The translations under genes and the position numbers were made by a program. The notes under the pieces were generated by a model, which was given only the letters and a program-made list of their open reading frames with translations, searched no databases and was not told where the DNA came from. Below are positions 26 through 41,448 of a DNA stretch of 64,000 nucleotides, one piece after another; positions within the stretch are counted from its first letter, which is position 1; each line of letters opens with the position of its first letter. Where the stretch lies: IMG/VR virus record IMGVR_UViG_3300028833_000004. One strand, given 5' to 3'. Origin of the DNA: a virus.

Positions 26-70
26 GGCCCATCTATGGAGCAGGACACAGTTCGATTCTGTGTATGGGCC
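26..70 (+). ncRNA. tRNA-like minihelix (acceptor-like helix plus canonical T-arm); not a complete tRNA
   Basis: GGCCCAT (26-32) is the exact complement of ATGGGCC (64-70). Between them CACAG(46-50)-TTCGATT(51-57)-CTGTG(58-62) is a textbook T-arm. The 13 nt left over cannot form D or anticodon arms. Confidence 0.3.
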
Positions 71-349: not shown

Positions 350-1150
350 AACTCCTGCAGAGGGATGCGTATTCTGCATTACTCATAACGCATAACGATA
401 GATCTTAGCTATTACAAAACACCTCCTTGTAATAGCCGGACAAGTATAGGAGGTATAAATTCGACAGACTATGAATATGTATGTCGACATGGCTGTAGAG
501 CCTCACGGCCCTACGTCTGAGAATGACATCGGGATTGCCATTCTACAGGCGTTAGAATCAAGATTGGAGAGTCCTAATGCTTTCTAGGCATCTCCAATCA
601 AGTACTGTCTGTACGCAAATTCTGATGAGGACATAGCCTATTTGAGATCTTGGATTTGTAGTAATCTTAGATCTACAAATGGCAAATCTGTCCTATCAGA
701 ATTTGACTACGGTCAGTAGTAGGGCTCCTGAGTAAGACTCCGAGTGTAATGAGCTCGGGAACAGAAATCATCCCTGTATTGATATTGGTTTATCATACAG
801 GCCTAAAGTTGGCCGTACATGGACACCACTATGTGTAGGGCCTAAATTAAAGAGCATCATCTCTCTAAACTGTCTAGCGGCTTGACCACATCCTTTCGGT
901 ACTGGCGGTGAAAATCCAAACCGGGCTAGCAAGCAGCTCATCTTGTAAAACCGAGCCACCTAAGCATTCATATATGTGAGCTTTCGGCAGCAGCATGTAT
1001 GAAAGACGGGCATCCTCAATATGATGTAAAACTATTGACATCAGATAAGATGTAAAAATCCCCACTACCGGGGTGACATGGTACTCGGATTGTTAATTGT
1101 CTGGCCGAGCGGACTAGAGCAGTTCTTGACCCACGGGCTGTCGACGATCC
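350..1150. ncRNA. candidate large structured noncoding RNA or structured noncoding DNA (unclassified)
   Basis: No convincing ORF; only short, mutually overlapping ORFs in different frames. Many long helices: 408-417/427-436 (10 bp perfect), 562-570/591-599 (9 bp), 617-633/689-704 (16 bp with one bulge) enclosing 654-661/673-680 (8 bp), and 773-779/795-801 (7 bp). The strand is not determined. Confidence 0.3.
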
Positions 1151-1180
1151 ACATTTTATGTGGATATTTTGGGTATTCAT

Positions 1181-1849
1181 ATGGCAACAAAGAATATTAT
1201 TGCCGAAGTAATTAATGCGAGCAAAGATGCTCGCCAATTTAGTGAGGAAGAGCTTCAAAAGAAGCTTGCCTCTCTAAATGGGCGAGATGGCTCGCCCCTC
1301 AAAGCCGAAGAGGAGCTTTGGCTCCTCCCGGTGCTCCTTCCAAGCTGGAAGTGGAAGGGCATTGAGGGTGAATACCCTGCACTTCCAGCCATCAACCAGA
1401 ACGGACACCTGGTCGTAATAGGTCTTGGAAGCCTCGCTGGAGGTTCTGGGTACCTAGAGGATCCAGGCGAAGGAACCTGGGAAATTTCGGAGACCGGATG
1501 GTGGTATCTAAAACCGTCTGAGGTCCCCGAAGGTGGTAGCAGGGCCACCAAAGTCTGGGGGTTGTCGAGGAGTCTTAAAGACTCATTCAACGACAACCTC
1601 GAGCTCAGAGGGGTCGTATCCCTCAAAGTAGAGGAGGACGGCTATTGTTACGGGCCGAGGCTCGTAAAGGCCGGGAGTCCCGACGAGGGACGAGAGAGGG
1701 CAAGCCTGCGCTTTAAGCGCAACACCCATTTCTGGGAAGGCAAGGCCCAGCCAATAACCGCCATTCCGAGCAAACTTAAAAAGTTTGCAGAGAAGCTGGG
1801 TTTACCGATGGAATGGCTAAAACCATTCCCAGCTGACTTCTACTGCTGA
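1181..1849 (+). CDS. hypothetical protein (G+C-rich ORFan, N-terminus MATKN)
   Basis: Long ORF with 33/60 G+C at 1381-1440. I place the start at ATG 1181 because its first codons ATGGCAACnAAnAAT (MATKN) recur at the next ORF. A perfect 14-bp terminator follows. No motif recognised. Confidence 0.55.
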   Translation: MATKNIIAEVINASKDARQFSEEELQKKLASLNGRDGSPLKAEEELWLLPVLLPSWKWKGIEGEYPALPAINQNGHLVVIGLGSLAGGSGYLEDPGEGTWEISETGWWYLKPSEVPEGGSRATKVWGLSRSLKDSFNDNLELRGVVSLKVEEDGYCYGPRLVKAGSPDEGRERASLRFKRNTHFWEGKAQPITAIPSKLKKFAEKLGLPMEWLKPFPADFYC

Positions 1850-1850
1850 A

Positions 1851-1892
1851 ATAAAGGATCCTAGAGAAATCTAGGATCCTTTATTTTTTTTG
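1851..1892. terminator. intrinsic (bidirectional-type) terminator
   Basis: ATAAAGGATCCTAG (1851-1864) pairs perfectly with CTAGGATCCTTTAT (1871-1884). The loop is AGAAAT, with a T-run at 1885-1891 and an A-rich 5' flank. Confidence 0.85.
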
Positions 1893-1970
1893 GCGACTCA
1901 TCATGGCCCCAGGTACTTTATAGCGCATAAAGCGTATTATTATTTTTTTTTAATTTAATATTTTTATTGT

Positions 1971-2639
1971 ATGGCAACGAAAAATTCGTATCTGGGTGAA
2001 AAATTCAACCCAGCAGATGAGAGCGATCGTGCTCTCAAAGACATGAAGGCACTCGAATCAGTTAATTTTGAGCGCCAAGCTCCATTAACTGAAGGTGCAA
2101 CTTATATCCTCCTACCGCAGGAAAATACAGCGGCTGTATATACTATCCCAGGAGTTGGTGATAGAGTTTCTCGCCGATTCTGGGCAGTTGAGCTTAACCG
2201 AAAGAATGAGCCTGTATCTATACGTAGTATAGGCTATTCATCGATAGCCAAAATGGGATATCAAGAAAAGACTTCAGCTCAACCTGCTGCACCAGAGGTT
2301 CCTGCATATCAGGATAAAGAAGGAAAATGGCACCCGAAACGTGGGTTAAGTTATGTGTTCTCATGCGAGGACCACAACTTCATTAAGGCAAACCCAGAGA
2401 CAATGCTTATGGAGATAAAGACTCCTACGGCATTGAAAGTGATGCGTAGAGCCGAAGTGTGGGTTGCATCCTTTAAGGATCAAGCATTAGTAGTAAAGGA
2501 CGGGATGATTGTTCCTGAAGTAGATGACCGATTCGTGTTCTTCAAAACCCTCGTAGCCCCAACTGAAGATATAGTTGAGGCTTGCAAAAAGGTCCTTGAA
2601 AATGAAGACTCAATTCAAGACTGCCTTTACCTGTTGTAA
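1971..2639 (+). CDS. hypothetical protein (second ORFan starting MATKN)
   Basis: 222-aa ORF preceded by an AT-rich leader. It shares the MATKN start with 1181..1849. No motif recognised. Confidence 0.6.
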   Translation: MATKNSYLGEKFNPADESDRALKDMKALESVNFERQAPLTEGATYILLPQENTAAVYTIPGVGDRVSRRFWAVELNRKNEPVSIRSIGYSSIAKMGYQEKTSAQPAAPEVPAYQDKEGKWHPKRGLSYVFSCEDHNFIKANPETMLMEIKTPTALKVMRRAEVWVASFKDQALVVKDGMIVPEVDDRFVFFKTLVAPTEDIVEACKKVLENEDSIQDCLYLL

Positions 2640-3615: not shown

Positions 3616-3984
3616 ATGCAAACAATTATGTATCAAGATGAAAAAGGATATAGATATATCCCAGTTTTCCAACCAGAGTTATCAAACTTGTTTGAATATA
3701 CTCGAAAAAAAGTATATCACATCTATACAGATAATCCTAAATGGTGTGGAAAAATATTACCAGAAGTAGTAAATGACACATCTATAGACGTAGGTACAAG
3801 AACTTATTGGCTGGAGAGAACTAATAACTCCATAGAGTGGGGACTAAAACCTTATCACAAGATATCATTTAAAGACATTGAAGAATTAGATGAAGATATA
3901 TGTGAAATATATAATTTTGAGTCAATTGGAATTGATTCAAGTGGAGTTTATGAATATGAAATTATCTATCCCTATGATGATTAG
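3616..3984 (+). CDS. hypothetical protein
   Basis: AT-rich 122-aa ORF ending on TAG. It is preceded by the conserved 26-nt motif. Confidence 0.65.
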   Translation: MQTIMYQDEKGYRYIPVFQPELSNLFEYTRKKVYHIYTDNPKWCGKILPEVVNDTSIDVGTRTYWLERTNNSIEWGLKPYHKISFKDIEELDEDICEIYNFESIGIDSSGVYEYEIIYPYDD

Positions 3985-3992
3985 GGATAGAT

Positions 3993-4018
3993 AATTTTTA
4001 TTAACAATTTAAAAATTA
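3993..4018 (+). promoter_or_regulatory. 26-nt upstream motif copy 2 (AATTTTTATTAACAATTTAAAAATTA)
   Basis: Second copy of the motif. Ends 6 nt before ATG 4025. Confidence 0.4.
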
Positions 4019-4601: not shown

Positions 4602-4804
4602 TTAAATCATGATATATCCTTATATAATGAAACCCTTTTTGACTAACCATTTATGGAGGAATAAATGGAAGCAGGTAAGAAGACATAATAGAAATTGACC
4701 AATTTTCATTATCCTGAGGATCTGGGTACACACAGTATCCTGAAAGTCTTCAATTTGTTCCTAAGAGAGTGATATCTGTTAGGGGCACTAACCCTGCAAA
4801 GGGA

Positions 4805-4878
4805 TTTGTCGTATTAATTTGTGTTTTTCCTGTCGAGAGAGTCTTAATCCTTATTTGGTTGGAAGATGGTTTAGAAGA
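4805..4878 (+). repeat. 74-nt repeat, module order A(4805-4840)-B(4841-4878)
   Basis: A is TTTGTCGTATTAATTTGTGTTTTTCCTGTCGAGAGA. B is GTCTTAATCCTTATTTGGTTGGAAGATGGTTTAGAAGA. Both modules recur at 6350-6423 in the opposite order. Confidence 0.9.
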
Positions 4879-5101
4879 CATGCGCGTGCGGTTATATAAG
4901 TAGTGTGTCTTCCGAGTAGTGTGTCTTGCGAACGACTCGGATGAACGACTACAAATTAACGTTTTTTTAGTAACTTGTTTGGGCATGTTAAGTCTTGGTG
5001 TTGATTTCATGTTCTCGAAGTGTCCGTTTGAGGTATATTCGGACGATTTTTATATTACTATTTCAAAAGTGGAGGCACCACGATAAAAACTGTTTATTGT
5101 T

Positions 5102-5383
5102 ATGTATTTATTGAACGCATTTAGTTTGCAGATGGTGGAAACACCTGTATCTGTGAAATTTTCTGAAATAGAAGTGAACGAATTGCCCAAAGAATTAACA
5201 TCAGCCATCGGGCATGCGGATACTGCTGCTGTTCTTGGTGTTGAATGCAATCGCATAAATGTTAAATTAGCAAAAGGCGATACCGCATACGTTGCCCAAC
5301 TGATGGGCGGACGACTCCCCGAAGGGAGCACAACTCTCCCCGAAGGATTCCACTTCAAGTTTATTAAGGTGGACGTTGAATAA
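5102..5383 (+). CDS. STIV B116-like / DUF1874 family small protein
   Basis: YLLNAFSLQM near the N-terminus, then SAIGHADTAAVLG...NRINVKLAKGDTAYVAQLMGGRLPEG. This parallels my recollection of B116 (FLTNAFSINM...NAIGHDST...NRVEVKMNEGDEALIIM..RLEEG). Confidence 0.7.
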   Translation: MYLLNAFSLQMVETPVSVKFSEIEVNELPKELTSAIGHADTAAVLGVECNRINVKLAKGDTAYVAQLMGGRLPEGSTTLPEGFHFKFIKVDVE

Positions 5384-5499
5384 ATCCCTTATTCAAAATA
5401 ATCAATACGTCAAAGAGCTAATAAATAGGATTTTTGACTAAAATGACAAATCATAAATCCTTAATTAAAAATTACTTATATTTATAAACCTACAATCAA

Positions 5500-5925
5500 A
5501 TGCCATTTAATGAGATGTGGGAAAGTTTAGTGAATATGTATAAGAGTACTGTAATGTTTCTCCGCTCAAATCGGAGAAATCGTCAAACAAAAATGACGAG
5601 GGGCGAATATTGTCCAGGAGAGCTTAAAAGTTCTCAGGCAATTCGCCAAATACTTTTTGATTTGAGAGGTAAGTTAATTCACTTTCCCAAGGATTCTTGG
5701 GTGTACTACATCTTAAGAGACCTTAAGATGGAAGAGTTCCGAAGAGGTGAAATAACCTACTGGAGATGTTGCCCGTACTTTGAGAGGGTGTACATTAACT
5801 TCAATGATGAAGCTAATTGGAACGAACTCCAAAGTACAGGTAAACTCTCCTGGGCTCGGGATGAGTATATATCATGGCTAAAAGCTGTGATGCCGCTCCG
5901 TTCTGAGATTATCCAGGTAGAGTGA
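5500..5925 (+). CDS. hypothetical protein
   Basis: 141-aa ORF with no recognisable motif. Composition is intermediate. Confidence 0.5.
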   Translation: MPFNEMWESLVNMYKSTVMFLRSNRRNRQTKMTRGEYCPGELKSSQAIRQILFDLRGKLIHFPKDSWVYYILRDLKMEEFRRGEITYWRCCPYFERVYINFNDEANWNELQSTGKLSWARDEYISWLKAVMPLRSEIIQVE

Positions 5926-6259
5926 TCTCCATCGGAGTTCCCACTACAGCAATGTGAATGGCAAGAGAGTGGGTGAAAGAGAGTTGCCCGCTGGTCACGT
6001 AAGACCACAGTCGAAGGTTACACGGAATCTTAAAGATGTAACCGAGTATTTAAAGTTGGGGACAAGTGATTGGTTTTGCTTGTACTTTCTAAATGGGTGT
6101 ACGCCATTCCGTCGGGAATAGTATTCTACTACCATTCCTTGTAAACGACCCGACGCTAAATAATAAACGTTCGACAACGGAAGGACTTGTGCTATCAGGC
6201 TGAACGGGCGGAAATATAGCAATCGCATGGGTTAGGTGCGTCCGTGCGGTTGCTTTTTT
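5926..6259 (+). ncRNA. candidate ~330-nt structured RNA or 3' UTR element capped by a terminator (unclassified)
   Basis: 32/60 G+C at 5941-6000. Helices at 6016-6022/6037-6043 (7 bp), 6110-6116/6149-6155 (7 bp), and 6048-6055/6085-6094 enclosing 6062-6066/6079-6083. The terminator lies at 6219-6259. Confidence 0.3.
6219..6259 (+). terminator. intrinsic terminator
   Basis: GCAATCGCA (6219-6227) pairs with TGCGGTTGC (6245-6253) over 9 bp, one of them a G-U pair. TTTTTT follows at 6254-6259. Confidence 0.65.
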
Positions 6260-6349
6260 GTTATGCACCAAAACGATTTGAACGGATGAAGAGTCTGAAA
6301 ATTTGGCTTGTCAATGTATCTAATTGGCAAGTTGTAGAACATTGCGGCG

Positions 6350-6423
6350 GTCTTAATCCTTATTTGGTTGGAAGATGGTTTAGAAGATTTGTCGTATTAA
6401 TTTGTGTTTTACCTGTCGAGAGA
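6350..6423 (+). repeat. 74-nt repeat, module order B(6350-6387)-A(6388-6423)
   Basis: B is identical to 4841-4878. A differs from 4805-4840 by one substitution (TTTTTCC versus TTTTACC). Confidence 0.9.
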
Positions 6424-7846: not shown

Positions 7847-7919
7847 GCCGCAATAGCTCAATGGATAGAGCAACTGACTTCTAATCAGTAGGTTGTAAGT
7901 TCGATTCTTACTTGCGGTA
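7847..7919 (+). tRNA. tRNA-Arg (anticodon TCT)
   Basis: The cloverleaf can be drawn by hand. Acceptor: GCCGCAA/TTGCGGT (G1-U72). D-arm: GCTC-AATGGATA-GAGC. Anticodon arm: ACTGA-CTTCTAA-TCAGT. T-arm: GTAAG-TTCGATT-CTTAC. Discriminator: A. Confidence 0.85.
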
Positions 7920-8592: not shown

Positions 8593-8879
8593 ACACCTAC
8601 ATTAACGAGGGAAAACGCACTATAGTTGTAGTCCTCACAGAAGGTAATTTATCATTTGTTGGAAAAGCAAAATGCTCTCCAAATGATATTTTTGACGAAT
8701 CCAAAGGTAAGAAGATTGCTCTTAAAAGAGCACAAATCAAATTCTACAAGCACTTGAAGCAAATGAATTCTATTCGAATATCTATGCTTAATGGAGCAAT
8801 TAATCAATTACAAGTCGAAAAAGAAAAGTTTGGCTCCAAAATCCAAAAACTGGAACAACAACTTAAAGAATTAAATTAA
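8586..8879 (+). CDS. hypothetical protein (conserved-looking GKAKCSPNDIFDESKGKKIALKRA segment)
   Basis: 97-aa ORF that overlaps the upstream stop. The C-terminus is coiled-coil. Confidence 0.6.
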   Translation: MLNTYINEGKRTIVVVLTEGNLSFVGKAKCSPNDIFDESKGKKIALKRAQIKFYKHLKQMNSIRISMLNGAINQLQVEKEKFGSKIQKLEQQLKELN

Positions 8880-9199: not shown

Positions 9200-10174
9200 A
9201 TGAAAATATTAACAGAAAGAGATGTGAATAAGCATGGCTGGGGTATAGTATCGGTAATTACATCCGACATGCTAGAGAAATATGGGTATACACAAATTGG
9301 AGATTATGCTTTTTGGGGCGATGATCTTGAATCAATCATAATACCTAATAGTATAACAAAAATTGGAATTGGCGCGTTCAGAAATTGTCCTAAACTGACT
9401 TCAGTAACAATCCCCAATAGTGTAACAATTATTGACTCTAGGGCTTTTTTAAATTGTAGTAATTTAACCTCAATCAAGATTCCAAATAGTGTAACAGGTA
9501 TTGGTATACATGCTTTTAATGGTTGTTCTAATTTAACTTCAATAGTAGTAGAAGCAGATAATCCAAATTATGATAGTAGAAACAATTGCAATGCTATAAT
9601 AGAGACTGCTACAAACACTCTTATCGCTGGTTGTAAAAATACAATTATTCCCAATAGTGTAACAAATATTGGAAGTTTTGCCTTCTATAGCTGTGATGAT
9701 TTGACATCTATAATAATTCCCGATAATGTAATTAGCATTGGAGATGATGCTTTCTGCAAAACAGGTTTGAAATCCATATCTATTCCAAATAGTGTTACAA
9801 GCATTGGATATTGTGCTTTTAAGGATTGTAAAATTAACATACCTAAAAAATATGATAGTCTGGGTAGACTAATTGCATATAAAGGATTTGATTCTAAGAT
9901 GCAATGTTATGATCATTTTCAATACATTGAAGGACATACTTATAAAACTTCTGAAGCTATATTATGTGAATGCGGATTCCACGCTTGTACTAATCCCTTA
10001 GATATATTTTCTTATTATTTCGGAAGAATAAATAAAAATGTATATATACATGAGGTATATCTTGATGATGTAAGTACTGAAAAGGGTACGGATAGTAAGG
10101 TTGTATCTAAGAAAATAACTATTGGTCGAAGATTAACCATTGAAGACATAAACAATATAATACAAGAAAAATAA
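9200..10174 (+). CDS. BspA-type leucine-rich-repeat protein with conserved Cys/His C-terminal domain (array copy 1)
   Basis: Repeats of about 23 aa with the pattern LTSIxIPNSVTxIGxxAFxxCxx. The C-terminal part reads [34 protein letters not shown]. Confidence 0.8.
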   Translation: MKILTERDVNKHGWGIVSVITSDMLEKYGYTQIGDYAFWGDDLESIIIPNSITKIGIGAFRNCPKLTSVTIPNSVTIIDSRAFLNCSNLTSIKIPNSVTGIGIHAFNGCSNLTSIVVEADNPNYDSRNNCNAIIETATNTLIAGCKNTIIPNSVTNIGSFAFYSCDDLTSIIIPDNVISIGDDAFCKTGLKSISIPNSVTSIGYCAFKDCKINIPKKYDSLGRLIAYKGFDSKMQCYDHFQYIEGHTYKTSEAILCECGFHACTNPLDIFSYYFGRINKNVYIHEVYLDDVSTEKGTDSKVVSKKITIGRRLTIEDINNIIQEK

Positions 10175-10221
10175 AAAAACATTTGTATAATTCAAAAACA
10201 AAGTAAAAAAAATAAACAAAC

Positions 10222-11070
10222 ATGAAAACATTAACACAAAATAGTGTAATTGAACACGGATGGGATAAATTATCAGTTATAACGGCTGATATGATAGAAA
10301 AATATAGGTATACACAAATTGGGAAAAATGCTTTTAATCATTGCCATAGCCTTACCTCAATTACTATACCTAATAGTGTAACAACCATTGGACTTTATGC
10401 TTTCTATGATTGCACTAATCTTACCTTAATAACCATTCCAAATAGTGTAACAAAAATTGGGGATTATGCTTTCTATAATTGCCGTAGTCTTACCTCAATA
10501 ACAATACCAAATAGTGTAATAGCCATTGGGTGTTGGACTTTTTATAGATGTAATAATCTTACCTCAATTACTATTCCAAATAGTGTAACATACATTGGAA
10601 ATGGTGCTTTCTATCATTGCAGTAATCTTACCTCTATAATCATACCTAATAGTGTAACAACCATTGAAGATGATGCTTTTGCTGATTGTGGAATAAACCT
10701 GCCTAAAAAATACGATAATCAAGGTAGGTTAATTGCATATAAGGGATTTGATAAACACATGCAATGTCGTGGTTTTCAATACATTGAGGGTGAAACCTAC
10801 GAAACAGATAAAGCTAAGTTATGTGTATGTGGTTTTCATGCTTGTACAAATCCTCTTGACATATTTAACTATTATGCTGGTGAAATAAATAATAAAATGT
10901 TTATTCACGAAGTGTATCTTGAAGATGTAAGTGGTGAGGAAAAAAATGATAGTAAAGTAGTTAGTAAGAAAATAACCATAGGTCGAAGATTAACAATTGA
11001 AGATATTAATAATATATTACAAGATGAAAGAGTTAACACGAGACAATGTAACCAAACATGGATGGAATGA
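10222..11070 (+). CDS. BspA-type LRR protein (array copy 2)
   Basis: Same architecture as copy 1. Its 3' end reads through the start codon of copy 3, giving a 47-nt overlap. Confidence 0.8.
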
Positions 11071-11845
11071 ACTATCGGTTATTACAGCCGATATGATAAA
11101 GGAATATGGCTATACTTCTATTGGAGAATACGCTTTCTATAATTGTAAAAATCTAGTTTCAATAACCTTACCAAATAGTATAACGAATATTAGAAGAAGT
11201 GCTTTTTTTAATTGTTATAAATTAGCCTTTATAACAATTCCTAATAGTGTAATCAGTATTGGAAATTATGCTTTCACATTTTGTCACAGCTTGACTTCGG
11301 TTATTATTCCTAATAGCGTAATAAATATTGGAAATAATGCATTCACTGGTTGTAATAGTCTAACCTCAGTCACAATTGGTAATGGTACAACAGGCATTGG
11401 AGATTGTACTTTTGCTTTTTGCAATAATCTTATTTCTATTATCATTCCTAATAGTATAAAAATTATTGGATTTCGTGCTTTTGGAGGTTGTAAAATAAAG
11501 TTGCCTAAAAAATATGATGCCCAAGGTAGATTAATTGCTTACAAAGGATTTAATAAAAACATGCAGTGTCGTAATTTTCAATATGCGGAAGGACAAACTT
11601 ATGAGACATACAAGGCGGAATTGTGTAAATGTGGCTTCCATGCCTGTACTAATCCTCTTGATGTATTTACTTATTATGCAGGTGAAATAGGTAAAGATAT
11701 GTTTATCCATGAAGTATATCTTGAAGAAGTGAATGATGAAGAAGATAGTGATAGCAAGATAGTTGCTAATAAAATAACTATTGGTAAACGTTTAACAATC
11801 AAAGATATTAATAAAATTATACAAAATGAAAATATTAACAGATGA
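11024..11845 (+). CDS. BspA-type LRR protein (array copy 3)
   Basis: I place the start at ATG 11024 ([14 protein letters not shown]), which aligns with the N-termini of the other copies. Same architecture. Confidence 0.8.
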
Positions 11846-17859: not shown

Positions 17860-18055
17860 GCAATTTGTTCAATAAAGATGTGCACCCACAACACACGGGA
17901 GATATTTTTCATTATGGCTGGCGTAAAATTGAAATTGCGCAACATAAAGAGAAAGGAAACGAGAAATGAAAAAGATAATGTATAATGAACAGTTTGGCTT
18001 GCAGCAAGCCACGTTTGAACGAAATAACATTATTAACAATTAAAACACAAACATT

Positions 18056-18358
18056 ATGACAGATTACACAGGAAAGAAAGTAATTGTCCGCTCGCACGGA
18101 GCGGGAGTGTTCTTCGGAACGTTGAAAGAATTTGATGCCGCCAACGGTATCGTAGAGTTAACAAACTGCCGCCGTGTGTGGTACTGGAGCGGTGCAACCT
18201 CGCTGTCCCAACTCGCTTGCGAGGGCGTTAAGAATGCCGGAGGCAGCAAGATAACGCAAGAGGTTGCGTCTATATGCGTTACACAAGTTTTGGAAATTAT
18301 TCCATGCACGGAAGAGGCTATTGAAAATCTAAATCGTGTGCCGGTATGGAAGATGTAA
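18056..18358 (+). CDS. hypothetical protein (G+C-rich cassette)
   Basis: 100-aa ORF (GKKVIVRSHGAGVFFGTL...RRVWYWSGATSLSQLACEGV). No function assignable. Confidence 0.65.
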   Translation: MTDYTGKKVIVRSHGAGVFFGTLKEFDAANGIVELTNCRRVWYWSGATSLSQLACEGVKNAGGSKITQEVASICVTQVLEIIPCTEEAIENLNRVPVWKM

Positions 18359-19065
18359 TTAAACGCTTTTTAGCAGTAGAATATGGCTATGGTTATGGTT
18401 ATGGCTTTGGCTATGGCTATGGCTATGGCGATGGCGATGGCTCTGGCGATGGCTCTGGCTCTGGCTATAGCGATGGCGATGGCGATGGCTCTGGCGATGG
18501 CTCTGGCTTTGGCTATAGCGATGGCTATGGCTATGGTTATGGCTCTGGCTTTGGCTATGGCTCTGGCGATGGCGATGGCTCTGGCGATGGCGATGGCTCT
18601 GGCATAAAATCTTTTTGTGGGCAAAAAGTCTATATCATAGATAGCGTGCAAACTCTTATCGATAGTATACATGGCAATTATGCAAGAGGTGCGATACTCA
18701 AATCTGATTTGACTACCGAGTCTTGCTACATAGCTAAGGTAGGCAATTTCTTTGCTCACGGCACTACGCTCAAGCAGGCGTTTGCAGACGCACAAGAAAA
18801 GTACGACAGGAACAGATCTATAAAAGAACGCATTGCAGATTTCGTGCAGCAATACCCGACACTTGACACAAAGTGCAAGGGCGCAGACCTCTTCCGGTGG
18901 CACAATGTCCTAACGGGCTCGTGCCAATTAGGCAGAGAGCAGTTTTGCAACGAGCGTGGCATTAACCCCGATACCGTTACGATGACTGTAAGAGAGTTTA
19001 TAGAACTGACAAAAAACGCCTACGGCAGTAAGGCAATCCTACTACTGCGTGAAGCGTATAACTAA
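18346..19065 (+). CDS. protein with N-terminal (GY/GD/GS)n low-complexity region and globular C-terminal domain
   Basis: 239-aa ORF. Residues from about 13 to 86 are Gly-X dipeptides. The C-terminal 150 aa are of normal composition. Confidence 0.7.
   Translation: MEDVIKRFLAVEYGYGYGYGFGYGYGYGDGDGSGDGSGSGYSDGDGDGSGDGSGFGYSDGYGYGYGSGFGYGSGDGDGSGDGDGSGIKSFCGQKVYIIDSVQTLIDSIHGNYARGAILKSDLTTESCYIAKVGNFFAHGTTLKQAFADAQEKYDRNRSIKERIADFVQQYPTLDTKCKGADLFRWHNVLTGSCQLGREQFCNERGINPDTVTMTVREFIELTKNAYGSKAILLLREAYN
18382..18603 (+). repeat. hexanucleotide (GGC-NNN type) tandem repeat tract inside a CDS
   Basis: Units such as tatggc, gatggc, tctggc and tttggc repeat for about 220 nt. All six frames are open here, which produces artefactual ORFs. 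Confidence 0.9.
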
Positions 19066-39030: not shown

Positions 39031-39305
39031 TTACTTTTAAAGATGTTACAGATAAACTGACTAAAATATATGAGGAAAAAAATCACTTTTATGGAGATAG
39101 TTTTGAAAAAACTTATGCACAATTTGGATTAGTTTCAGCTGTTGTTAGAATAAATGATAAAGTTAATAGACTCAACTCTCTTACTGCACTTGGTGGAATA
39201 TCAATTCCTAGGGAGGAGTCTATTGATGATACCTTATTAGATCTAGCAAACTATGCAATACTAACTTATTTAATTAGAAATAAAAACAATGATTTACCTT
39301 GTTAG
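39027..39305 (+). CDS. DUF1599-like small protein
   Basis: KNHFYGDSF...VVRINDKVNRL...DTLLDLANYA resembles the DUF1599 pattern. This is from recollection only. Confidence 0.45.
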   Translation: MITFKDVTDKLTKIYEEKNHFYGDSFEKTYAQFGLVSAVVRINDKVNRLNSLTALGGISIPREESIDDTLLDLANYAILTYLIRNKNNDLPC

Positions 39306-41448
39306 TAAAGAACCGAAGTTATTTTCACCTGAAAATTATGAGATAATTTCAGTTGAAATGGCTTTAGAAATTTTGGAACCTATAAAAATCGTTGCGGCTG
39401 ATACTGAAACTGAAGGTCTAGATCCATATACTAAAAGATTATTATCCGTTCAATTAGGTGATAGTGAAAATCAAGTTGTAATAGATTGCACAACTATAGA
39501 TATTCAATTATTTAAAGAATACTTGGAGTCTGATAGAATTTTTATTTTCTGGAATGCTGCATTTGATTTAAAGTTCTTTTACCATCAAAGGATTGTAATT
39601 AAAAATGTATGGGATGGCTTTATAGCTGAAAAGCTATTATATCTTGGATATGGTGATCAACATGAATATAGTTTAAAAGCCGCAGGATATAATTATTTAG
39701 GAATAGAGCTAGATAAATCCGTTAGAGGTAAAATTATTACAGTGGGACTCACTGAAGAAGTTGTTATTTATGCTGCCAATGATATTAAATATGAATTGGA
39801 TATTCGTGAAAAACAACTAGAGGAGCTGAAAAAGAAGGGATTAATAAACGCTATAGATTTTGAAAATAAGTTTACACCTGTTTTAGCTTATATTGAATAT
39901 TGTGGTGTTAAGTTAGATGTTGACAAATGGAAAGAAAAGATGCGCCGTGATGAAGAGTCTCTACAAAAAGCTGAACAAGATTTAAATTCATTTGTTATAA
40001 ATTTCTACAAAGAGCACTCAAAATCTAAAGGCAAAGTTTGTATATCAAAACTCATTCAAACTATTTGGTTTGATAGAGATACTGAATTTTATGATTATAA
40101 CGATAAACCCCTCGAAGTTTCTAAAGTAAAACGAGCTGATGGATCTGGTATAGATATTATAGGTACTTTTGAATATAATTTTCCATATGTTTATAAGGAT
40201 CTCCAAGGTGATTTATTTTCCGGATTTAATACAGATTATCAATGTAATATTAATTGGAATAGTGGTAAACAAGTAATTCCTCTATTTAAATTATTGGGAA
40301 TTAATTGTGAAGTATTTGATCCGAAAACTAAGCAAACTAAAGAATCAATTGTTGAAAAAGTTTTAGCACCTCAGATTAAAGATTTTCCTATTCTTAAAAT
40401 ATATTTAGATTATAAAGGAGCACAAAAGTTAACTTCAACTTATGGGCAAAACTGGTTAGATGCTATCAATCCTGTTTCTGGAAGAATTCATGTAAATTTA
40501 TTTCAATTAGGAACAGATACTGGCAGATTAAGTTCTGGTGGTCTTCCTTATAAATTAAATATTCAAAATCTTCCAAAAGATGTTTTTACTAGATCTTGTT
40601 TTATTTCAGAACCTGGTAATAGTTGGATATCTAGTGATTATGAGGGCCAAGAGTCCGTATTAATGGCATCAATTGCAAATGATGAAGTTATGTTAGACTT
40701 ACTAAAATCTGGCAAAGATATGCATAGTTTCGTTGCCAAACTATCATGGCCTGAAATAATAGGAGATACTCCTTTGGAAGAGATTAAACCTAAATTTAAA
40801 GACATAAGACAAGATGCAAAAAGTGTTGAATTTGCTATTGCTTATGGTGGAAATGCTGTCACAATTTCCAAAAATAATGGAATTCCTATGGAGGAAGCCA
40901 CTAAAATCTATGAAAATTACATGAACGGATTTAAAGGTGTTGCGGCATATCAAGCTTTTAGAAGAAAGGATTTTAAGAATAAGGGATATATTTTAATTAA
41001 TTCATTAACTGGTCATAAAGTATTCTTTCCTGACTGGGATTATATTCAAACAGAATTAAATAAACGAAAATCTAAAGAGTTTTGGGAAGAGTATAGATTA
41101 GCAAAAGAAACCGGAGATAAAGATTTTTTAAAATCTTATAAAGAATTTAAAAAATTAATAGATGAGTTAGAAAAACAAAGTATTAATTATGTTATTCAGG
41201 GTAATGGTGCTTTATGTTTCAAATTATCATCTATAAAATTATTTAATTATTTAGTAAAAAATAATTTGTTATTTAAGGTTCTTTATTGTATACCAGTTCA
41301 TGATGAAATTAATATAGAATGTCCATCTGAAATTAGTGAAGAAATGTCTAAAGTACTATTAAAATGTATGGAAGATGGTGCTGAGCCTTTTTGTACAAAA
41401 CTTAAATTAACTGCCGATCCAGTTATTGGCGATCATTGGATTCATTAA
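39289..41448 (+). CDS. family A DNA polymerase with 3'-5' exonuclease domain
   Basis: Exo I DTETEGL, Exo II NAAFDLKF and Exo III YAANDIKY. Motif A SSDYEGQES, motif B RQDAKSVEFAIAYGG and motif C PVHDEI. Confidence 0.9.
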   Translation: MIYLVSKEPKLFSPENYEIISVEMALEILEPIKIVAADTETEGLDPYTKRLLSVQLGDSENQVVIDCTTIDIQLFKEYLESDRIFIFWNAAFDLKFFYHQRIVIKNVWDGFIAEKLLYLGYGDQHEYSLKAAGYNYLGIELDKSVRGKIITVGLTEEVVIYAANDIKYELDIREKQLEELKKKGLINAIDFENKFTPVLAYIEYCGVKLDVDKWKEKMRRDEESLQKAEQDLNSFVINFYKEHSKSKGKVCISKLIQTIWFDRDTEFYDYNDKPLEVSKVKRADGSGIDIIGTFEYNFPYVYKDLQGDLFSGFNTDYQCNINWNSGKQVIPLFKLLGINCEVFDPKTKQTKESIVEKVLAPQIKDFPILKIYLDYKGAQKLTSTYGQNWLDAINPVSGRIHVNLFQLGTDTGRLSSGGLPYKLNIQNLPKDVFTRSCFISEPGNSWISSDYEGQESVLMASIANDEVMLDLLKSGKDMHSFVAKLSWPEIIGDTPLEEIKPKFKDIRQDAKSVEFAIAYGGNAVTISKNNGIPMEEATKIYENYMNGFKGVAAYQAFRRKDFKNKGYILINSLTGHKVFFPDWDYIQTELNKRKSKEFWEEYRLAKETGDKDFLKSYKEFKKLIDELEKQSINYVIQGNGALCFKLSSIKLFNYLVKNNLLFKVLYCIPVHDEINIECPSEISEEMSKVLLKCMEDGAEPFCTKLKLTADPVIGDHWIH

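Follow-up and report, generated by a model that had tools for sequence, protein, structure and literature searches.

Large structured noncoding RNAs (ncRNAs) of the GOLLD and ROOL types are associated with phages and prophages and often lie near tRNAs. The early promoters of phage N4 are of the hairpin type and are used by the virion RNA polymerase (RNAP). Hepatitis delta virus (HDV)-like theta ribozymes are said, after Kienbeck and colleagues in 2024, to adjoin tRNAs in recoded gut phages. Here we compare with such systems a structure-dense locus of a crAss-like phage. The DNA is a stretch of 64,000 nucleotides (nt) from IMG/VR record IMGVR_UViG_3300028833_000004, called the window below, and the element under study is its segment 395-1180, which is free of open reading frames (ORFs) and lies directly before a gene, ORF1. 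An initial annotation had taken positions 350-1150 as a candidate large structured RNA. Two papers on crAss-like phage genomics hold no mention of ncRNA or secondary structure in this sense; Zeta-type crAss-like phages are reported (PMC7886860) to be rich in self-splicing introns.

Our tentative reading, to which we attach somewhat less than an even chance, is that 395-1180 forms the 5′ leader of ORF1 in an early polycistronic RNA, a structured leader that is specific to the lineage and acts in cis. The segment and its parts are listed here (p, pair probability).

395-1180, plus strand: ORF-free, strongly folding body (the body); z = -7.8/-5.5, longest ORF 63 amino acids (aa), no Rfam match
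408-436, plus strand: perfect 10-bp hairpin with the 9-nt loop AACACCUCC; p = 0.97
503-731, plus strand: three-hairpin domain (515-550, 562-599 and 603-718) closed by 503-512/721-731; predicted, p 0.86-1.0
470-489, plus strand: 5′ strands of two long-range helices, 470-478/1173-1181 (9 bp, p = 0.74) and 483-489/1139-1145 (7 bp, p = 0.79); predicted
1139-1181, plus strand: 3′ strands of the long-range helices and an 8-bp hairpin at 1147-1165; from the predicted fold

Shuffled controls that preserve dinucleotides fold less well than the flagged region. For 350-1150 the minimum free energy (MFE) from RNAfold is -265.6 kcal/mol, compared with -218.5 ± 6.0 for the shuffles (z = -7.8, plus strand); on the minus strand z is -5.5. 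Perfect local stems of at least 8 bp number three, where 200 shuffles average 0.33 and only two reach three. The chance rate of stems of at least 10 bp is 0.025 per 800 nt or about 0.2 per 6 kb, in agreement with the roughly 0.3 assumed in the initial annotation. The helices that it listed are all present when checked base by base, save for one shift: the stem at 461-466 exists, its partner being 482-487 and not 483-488, which is off by one. The 408-417/427-436 stem is a perfect 10 bp; 562-570/591-599 (9/9), 573-576/585-588 (4/4), 654-661/673-680 (8/8) and 773-779/795-801 (7/7) are fully paired; and 517-525/539-548 and 617-633/689-704 are real with one bulge apiece, at ensemble pair probabilities of 0.93-1.0. 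A pseudoknot proposed between the loop at 421-426 (ACCTCC) and GGAGGT at 449-454 has its complementarity (6/6) but is not favoured in the ensemble, where GGAGG 448-452 prefers CUCCU 352-356 (p = 0.92; ViennaRNA, which does not model pseudoknots). By a rough estimate of ours, not a tool result, a 6-nt match for one of about ten loops within ~30 nt has a chance of order 0.3.

No protein gene is hidden in the region. The longest ORF in 350-1150 under the standard code has 63 aa, as the earlier remark that no frame stays open for long would have it, and each of the six frames holds 11-19 stops per 261 codons, where random sequence would give about 15. Under the standard code no stop-to-stop frame reaches 90 codons, and reassigning TGA or TAA opens none either; reassignment of TAG gives one frame of exactly 90 codons per strand. 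A recoded protein gene was rejected on these grounds (longest frame 90 codons, with TAG; 11-19 mixed stops per frame) and because tblastx to relatives was empty, and a pseudogene remnant was rejected for want of a stop-depleted frame and for the same empty tblastx. Two of the outcomes named at the outset as arguments against a structured RNA, equally folding shuffles and a protein under another code, did not occur.

The folding excess extends well beyond the segment. An island of ~3.9 kb with 42-56% GC, set in a phage of 28% GC, runs from about position 7810 of contig L001 (which extends the locus upstream, window position 1 being its position 8821), some 1 kb 5′ of the window, to about window position 2800; the flagged region itself has 42-45% GC, compared with 28% for the genome. 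The island opens the plus-strand gene module of a TAG-recoded crAss-like phage. In 400-nt steps across positions 1-2800, z is -9.2, -4.3, -7.5, -5.2, -1.9, -9.4, -5.9, -4.4, -6.2, -6.2, -3.5, -2.6 and -8.1, and in the other 68 such steps of the 64 kb it has a mean of -1.47 (standard deviation 1.5, minimum -5.0). The island is thus an outlier in composition and in structure, folding 4-6 standard deviations better than the genome elsewhere. Its ~1 kb upstream of the window also folds abnormally well, and the coding sequence of ORF1 matches the ORF-free segment in folding strength (z -3.0 to -6.9 in overlapping 200-nt steps). A 200-nt scan of the region locates the excess in 400-800 and 1100-1200, with z near 0 in steps between 700 and 1200. 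Since the excess spans the whole island, what has been found is the ORF-free middle of a ~3.9-kb structural outlier and not a delimited structured-RNA gene. Mobile-element boundaries, notable direct-repeat families and iterons were not found around the island (L001 7600-12400); for the lack of notable direct repeats and iterons there, and because the region is GC-rich (42-45%), a replication origin was rejected as a candidate.

Within the body, the predicted fold is one of hairpins on a string with a closing helix and without an obvious compact ribozyme-like core. The 603-718 element is an irregular hairpin of 116 nt with ~46 bp, self-complementary by BLAST, and inverted repeats I2 and I6 support the three-hairpin domain around it (503-731). 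Further hairpins are predicted at 740-758, 773-801 and 811-842, followed by a second predicted domain, 869-1123, that contains a hairpin at 967-1003. The two long-range helices would close a domain of ~710 nt and pair the 11 nt before the ORF1 AUG together with its first base (1181). The 1147-1165 hairpin beside them also scores as a weak terminator-like site, with three GC pairs and a short T-run. Long-range occlusion of the ORF1 start is likewise predicted in two relatives, L019 and L020, and local occlusion in the other lineages.

All 4227 models of Rfam 15, which include GOLLD, ROOL, OLE, HEARO, raiA, introns, riboswitches and ribozymes, were run over the window. At gathering threshold no model matched the region, and the only match in the 64 kb was a tRNA-Arg at 7847-7919; with permissive filters nothing reached E ≤ 10 within 1-1160, nor in the 2.3 kb upstream, and the 3.6 kb upstream gave no relevant match at either threshold, so the covariance-model search proposed with the initial annotation gave the region no family. 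Homologous islands were found in at least eight lineages, through contigs of ORF1 relatives (L013, L014/L015, L016 and L033-L037) and through scans with three DNA motifs of metagenomes (L018-L020) and of genomes (L022); L017 and L021, from the same scans, were rejected as chance matches. No homologue of the body was found in relatives L013-L022 and L033-L037 by blastn, nhmmer or tblastx; the collection scans, which were queried with flanking motifs and not with the body, yielded clade members among viral (0), genome (1) and metagenome (3) contigs. Membership in a GOLLD/ROOL-type class fails for want of a conserved multi-stem architecture or covariation in relatives. Membership among group I/II introns fails as well, there being no Rfam intron match, complete flanking ORFs and, by eye, no domain-V-like hairpin. 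By these models the body belongs to no described RNA family, and a compact ribozyme-like fold is a candidate at most. The idea of a large structured RNA survives in its ORF-free and strongly folding part, and not as a discrete, delimited RNA or an Rfam member; the folding statistics are robust but the label is only partly justified, and the locus resembles the structured early-operon RNA of phages.

Short elements are conserved around the body, and these, with the two genes that follow, are listed next.

26-70, plus strand: tRNA-like minihelix with acceptor stem GGCCCAT/ATGGGCC (26-32/64-70), T stem ACACAG/CTGTGT (45-50/58-63) and T loop TTCGATT (51-57)
352-394, plus strand: nearly invariant ~40-nt element, (G)AGAGGG-nn-GCGyATTCTnnnTTACTCATAACGCA, in five lineages
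1181-1849, plus strand: ORF1, 222 aa, of a rare phage protein family; coding sequence strongly folded
1849-1886, plus strand: intrinsic terminator, a 17-bp perfect hairpin with T-run (inverted repeat I4; terminator-like Rfam alignment)
1892-1911, plus strand: conserved motif GGCGACTCATCATGGCCCC after the ORF1 terminator, a candidate phage-RNAP promoter or 5′ processing site
1971-2639, plus strand: ORF2, 222 aa, conserved partner of ORF1 (tblastn/tblastx to L014, L018, L019, L020 and L022)

The island keeps its architecture in at least eight lineages, which share a start motif with a covarying hairpin, the ~40-nt element, the minihelix, and the terminator followed by CGACTCAKCATGG; the content between these elements consists of exchangeable cassettes. 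The minihelix begins 7 nt past the stop of an upstream ORF of 136 aa. With its 7-bp acceptor stem, 6-bp T stem and TTCGATT loop it is a minihelix and not a full tRNA, since D and anticodon arms are missing (12 nt separate the acceptor 5′ strand from the T arm) and ARAGORN made no call. Its homologues in L013 (1849-1895), L018 (214-260), L019 (3370-3416) and L020 (minus strand, ~2634-2689) keep the loop, and the stems differ from these copies by five compensatory double changes. Within the early operon the minihelix may serve as a signal for RNase P/Z-type processing. The ~40-nt element forms a 4-6-bp stem (TGCG/CGCA) around a conserved 18-nt loop; the ORF-free body has its 5′ boundary here. 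Its copies (L013 988-1027, L019 2286-2326, L020 reverse complement ~1540-1577, L022 reverse complement 3967-4003) are kept although the ORF1 proteins of its five lineages are only ~25% identical, and one outer pair changes from A:T to C:G in L019.

After the ORF1 terminator the motif (G)CGACTCAKCATGG(CC) stands in all readable junctions, namely L013, L014, L016, L018, L019, L020 and L033-L037; L022 has the variant CGACGCAGCATGGC 5′ of ORF2 and not 3′ of ORF1. A related motif marks the island start: ACCTAC-CA(G)CATGGCCCC, a small hairpin closed by CCC/GGG, then GGGAAAAC, also written as ACCTAC-CAGCATGGCCCC with a covarying hairpin before GGGAAAAC. It lies upstream of the window at L001 7904-7935 (with a related site at L001 8043-8054) and recurs in L014 (664), L019 (7), L020 reverse complement (106) and L022 reverse complement (2030). 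The inner stem differs from lineage to lineage, as CGC/GCG, GGC/GCC, GTCT/AGAC, CGCT/AGCG or GGG/CCC.

A noncoding stretch stands directly 5′ of ORF1 in every lineage, of 255-830 nt in L013, L014, L019, L020, L022 and L033/L034. The leaders of L013, L018, L019 and L020 measure ~290-370 nt with the minihelix at the 5′ end, that of L014 has 255 nt, that of L033 ~260 nt and that of L034 at least 240 nt; in L022 the leader takes up ~800 nt from the island-start motif to ORF1. The L033 (1289-1448) and L034 (1-160) leaders are ~90% identical over ~180 nt, while their ORF1s represent separate 50%-identity clusters, so that this leader is either strongly constrained or a recently exchanged cassette. 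One of its hairpins shows two compensatory pairs along with plus-strand G-U pairs. The ORF1 of L019 (3648-4298) has z of -6.4 to -7.9 on the sense strand versus -2.8 to -4.5 on the antisense strand. Together, the L033/L034 leader and this strand bias favour an RNA-level role of the ORF1 leader and mRNA in the relatives. ORF2, for its part, folds with z near 0 in L019 and L014.

Transcription of the segment can be judged from its surroundings. The island ORFs all lie on the plus strand. Of the island's eight terminator-like sites the minus strand holds seven, and the only plus-strand site of this kind before the ORF1 stop is the weak hairpin at 1147-1165. Because the body lies between plus-strand genes and has no strong plus-strand terminator before it, the ORF-free segment is very probably transcribed on the plus strand. 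No host-type promoter was found on the plus strand of the island region, and the best candidates for a non-host promoter or a 5′ end are the CATGGCC motifs that open the island and follow the terminator. On the proposed scheme the island RNA would be a polycistronic early plus-strand transcript made from a non-host (phage RNAP) promoter at the CATGGCC motifs, and it would be cut or stabilised at the minihelix by RNase P/Z-type and at the long hairpins by RNase III-type activity. The 790-nt leader would act in cis as a closed domain of several hairpins, in which the pairing of 470-489 with 1139-1181 at the base hides the ORF1 start; such a hidden start would gate the translation of ORF1 and shield a transcript free of ribosomes.

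Several observations weigh against such a leader. The unpaired probability of the ORF1 AUG is 0.33-0.5 in all lineages, but any folded RNA has roughly half of its bases paired, and the evidence for occlusion is accordingly weak. The long-range helices were each predicted from a single sequence; the palindrome GTCGAC lies within their arms, and helices of this kind are commonplace in MFE models. GNRA tetraloops are missing from the hairpin loops read off the predicted fold, an argument against compact tertiary folding. For lack of a homologue of the body in the relatives found, no covariation stands behind any of its helices. The stretch 800-1100 has no local folding excess. The two strands fold about equally, with similar MFE and 25 versus 26 G-U pairs, so thermodynamics cannot tell RNA from DNA, or plus from minus; assignment of the strand by G-U asymmetry was accordingly dropped as uninformative for the body. 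Finally, in L013, L019, L020 and L022 the ~40-nt element is followed by unrelated protein ORFs, and the body could be leftover cargo.

That last thought can be carried further, to the view that the segment is filler, decayed or swapped-in cargo of a hypervariable slot, and that its folding is an island-wide property of GC- and palindrome-rich DNA and not a product of selection. The unrelated ORFs that occupy the same slot in those four relatives fit this view, as do a body unique to its lineage, stop density that is random in six frames, and an ORF1 coding sequence that folds equally strongly in the same island. We nevertheless hold it to be rather unlikely, given that phage genomes seldom retain 0.8 kb of junk, that no trace of a former ORF is left (no stop-depleted frame, empty tblastx), and that z of -7.8 with several perfect stems of 8-10 bp is unexpected for a decayed gene; moreover, ORF-free leaders precede ORF1 in every lineage, and those of L033/L034 are more conserved than the protein. 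Slightly less probable again is a stand-alone, trans-acting large ncRNA of the GOLLD/ROOL type, freed between 352-394 and 1147-1165 and acting on machinery of the host or the phage, for instance as decoy, scaffold or anti-defence agent. Its size of ~0.8 kb, freedom from ORFs, z of -7.8 and many helices with p > 0.9 suit such an RNA, which would have a conserved element at its 5′ boundary and a hairpin plus short T-run at its 3′ boundary, and which would be phage-encoded near a tRNA-like element. Against this stand the lack of an Rfam match, GOLLD and ROOL included, at E ≤ 10; the lack of a homologue in relatives, whereas true large ncRNA classes recur across many genomes; a 3′ hairpin that is a weak terminator with three GC pairs; and a folding excess that is not specific to the segment. 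A search for trans targets, or for template/variable pairs of a diversity-generating retroelement, found no complementarity of at least 18 nt to the rest of the 64-kb window.

The structure might also act as DNA, as a hairpin or cruciform at a replication origin, in a first-entering segment or at a virion-RNAP recognition site comparable with the N4 early promoters. Helices that are nearly pure Watson-Crick, equal folding of the strands, the position of the island at the divergence point of two gene modules, and CATGGCC motifs that each precede a covarying hairpin, reminiscent of N4 hairpin promoters, would all suit a DNA element. The region is GC-rich, however, and holds no iterons, direct repeats or AT-rich unwinding element; the relatives favour the plus strand, in the folding of L019 ORF1 and in plus-strand G-U pairs of hairpins; and a 0.8-kb body far exceeds any known promoter or origin hairpin. 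We consider this account decidedly unlikely. Very improbable indeed is a self-splicing intron (group I or ORF-less group II) or other ribozyme element before ORF1. Its appeal lies in the intron richness of Zeta crAss-like phages noted above (PMC7886860), in a length of 0.7-0.8 kb that suits an ORF-less group II intron, and in the predicted long-range helix that closes the body. Yet no Rfam intron or ribozyme model matches at E ≤ 10, no gene is interrupted (at 210-250 aa the ORF1 homologues are whole, and a stop codon closes the upstream ORF), and neither a domain-V-like hairpin nor a GNRA loop is seen by eye in the predicted fold.

ORF1 has 11 remote relatives by HMMER (E 1.5e-08 to 8.3e-05, ~25-30% identity, mostly 209-251 aa) and is therefore a real protein family. 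An AF2 model of it is beta-rich with pLDDT 78; a PDB fold search with this model had no match, only OB-fold-like results with probability below 0.1, so the model gives no functional hint. In a word-indexed search of 5.8 billion proteins ORF1 and ORF2 returned only themselves, and GenBank phages gave nothing by blastn 'distant' with positions 1-2700 or by tblastn with ORF1 and ORF2. ORF1, ORF2, the lysis protein and three DNA motifs found no clade member in IMG/VR, where one motif gave three chance matches (L023-L025). In the word-indexed search the neighbouring lysis protein matched only distant relatives, whose contigs (L006-L012) have no similar island. Look-up of the exact ORF1 protein led to contigs of 117 kb (JGI) and 158.6 kb (ENA), each 100% identical to the window, and samples that hold this phage are JGI 3300031992, 3300024342 and 3300035054, SRR7634052, SRR9006730 and ERZ27257202; because exact-protein look-ups returned only such identical copies of the same strain, there was no within-population variation to analyse. 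The ORF1 and ORF2 of one phage open with identical codons, four to seven of them, that vary between phages: MATKN/MATKN here (1181-1195, 1971-1985), and MVENKGI/MVENKGI and MTEV/MTEV in relatives (L013 2201/3047; L014 2624/3393). The pattern points to concerted evolution of a repeated element, either of 5′ coding sequence or for the initiation of translation.

The window belongs to a crAss-like phage of ~28% GC. Its DNA polymerase (39289-41448) shares 45-50% identity with the polymerases of IAS virus, cr111_1 and PhiCrAssBcn phages, and further large ORFs resemble phage replication functions. Upstream of the window lie minus-strand genes that include a lysis-like protein and a PD-(D/E)XK nuclease. 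The late/lysis genes on this strand (L001 1-7749) have 2-22 in-frame TAG codons each, 22 of them in one gene of 570 codons, and all terminate with TAA, so the late genes are TAG-recoded; the plus-strand island genes are free of any in-frame stop. L001 3753-4149 encodes tRNA-Trp, tRNA-Cys and tRNA-Asn; the stretches examined revealed no suppressor tRNA. A short AT-rich stretch directly before the GC-rich island separates the divergent modules and holds a Bacteroidetes-type promoter (TTTG / TAnnTTTG) that serves the minus strand only. The relative L022, found in the genome-collection motif scan, is S22M_St_77, of 155,709 bp, deposited as a 'Bacillota MAG' (metagenome-assembled genome). Table 1 of PMC12386605 places S22M_St_77 among the Zeta crAss-like phages and credits it with an amber suppressor tRNA (anticodon CTA). 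By this relative, the 158.6-kb contig and the TAG recoding our phage is probably, if tentatively, of the Zeta type; the assignment is weakened by the same table, which gives S22M_St_77 a polB, whereas the polymerase in the window is of family A.

Other features of the window lie outside the island. A second GC-rich island at 18000-19000 (48% GC) encodes a 239-aa ORF (18346-19065), folds with z of only -3.7 and has no CATGGCC motif. At 9200-11845 are three tandem paralogues (324, 282 and 282 aa) with LRR_5 / DUF7666 domains and ~69% DNA identity. A 76-nt sequence at 4803-4878, made of a 38-nt block A and a 38-nt block B, recurs 1.5 kb away in the swapped order B-A at 6350-6423, the blocks sharing 100% and 97% identity. 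The 1.5-kb unit at these repeats encodes an STIV_B116-like ORF (5102-5383) and a 141-aa ORF. Short contigs of other samples begin or end exactly within the repeats (e.g. L030, window 4849-6387), and the unit between them may be excisable, circular or tandemly variable.

crAss-like phages rank among the most abundant gut viruses, and the early region of recoded Zeta-type lineages is hardly known. At this locus exchangeable cassettes are split by a few strongly conserved elements, one of them a minihelix with compensatory changes. The 0.8-kb body by itself is a candidate functional RNA; its context, a conserved structure-dense early island with tRNA-like punctuation and invariant motifs, is more interesting than the body. 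If the leader and the elements act as RNA, they would open the making, cutting and translation of early transcripts to study, through a candidate promoter, sites of processing and a gate on translation, in hosts without Shine-Dalgarno initiation. A bolder version is doubtful in our view, a shade more so than the DNA-level account: that RNA structure dominates the early module and that the body is a trans-acting, lineage-specific ncRNA, the first of a fast-evolving class of giant phage ncRNAs. Were it true, a Zeta-type early transcript from a non-host promoter would be punctuated by the minihelix and the ~40-nt element and would carry protein or ncRNA cassettes for host takeover or as an anti-defence decoy.

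Set beside described systems, the flanking motifs recall phage promoters: CGACTCAkCATGG follows terminators and is itself followed by a small covarying hairpin, as one might compare with N4 and with T7 CGACTCACTATAGG. The core of the T7 promoter is CGACTCA, to which the likeness of the flanking motif is possibly due to chance, and to our knowledge the crAss-like virion RNAP is unrelated to the T7 and N4 polymerases. This comparison concerns the flanking motifs and not the 395-1150 body, and the likeness may be fortuitous. With the theta ribozymes the locus shares a recoded gut/rumen phage and the order of a tRNA-like element followed by structured RNA; it differs in having a minihelix in place of a tRNA and no Rfam HDV-family match at E ≤ 10. 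The predicted helix that bridges ~700 nt and buries a downstream start codon, with structure continuing into the coding sequence, resembles the long-distance control of MS2 and Qbeta. Those are single-stranded RNA phages, whereas ours has double-stranded DNA, and the helix here is a single-sequence prediction without covariation.

Processing signals of polycistronic transcripts offer another comparison. The 603-718 hairpin, and a minihelix that follows a stop between cistrons, are like the RNase III hairpins of the T7 early operon, the MALAT1/mascRNA element and the mitochondrial 'tRNA punctuation', and again the short elements are conserved where the intervening genes differ. Compared with a T7 RNase III site the intercistronic RNA is more than 10 times longer here, and its cleavage is hypothetical. 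We know of no description of a tRNA-like minihelix as operon punctuation in crAss-like phages. GOLLD and ROOL share with the body a length of ~0.6-0.8 kb, freedom from ORFs, structure, a phage genome and a tRNA-like element, here ~300 nt upstream; the body differs from them in drawing no covariance-model score at E ≤ 10, in its restriction to one lineage and in its place as a leader within an operon. By analogy, the body possibly works like GOLLD and ROOL, or like the processed intercistronic RNAs of phage early operons, without being a member of either.

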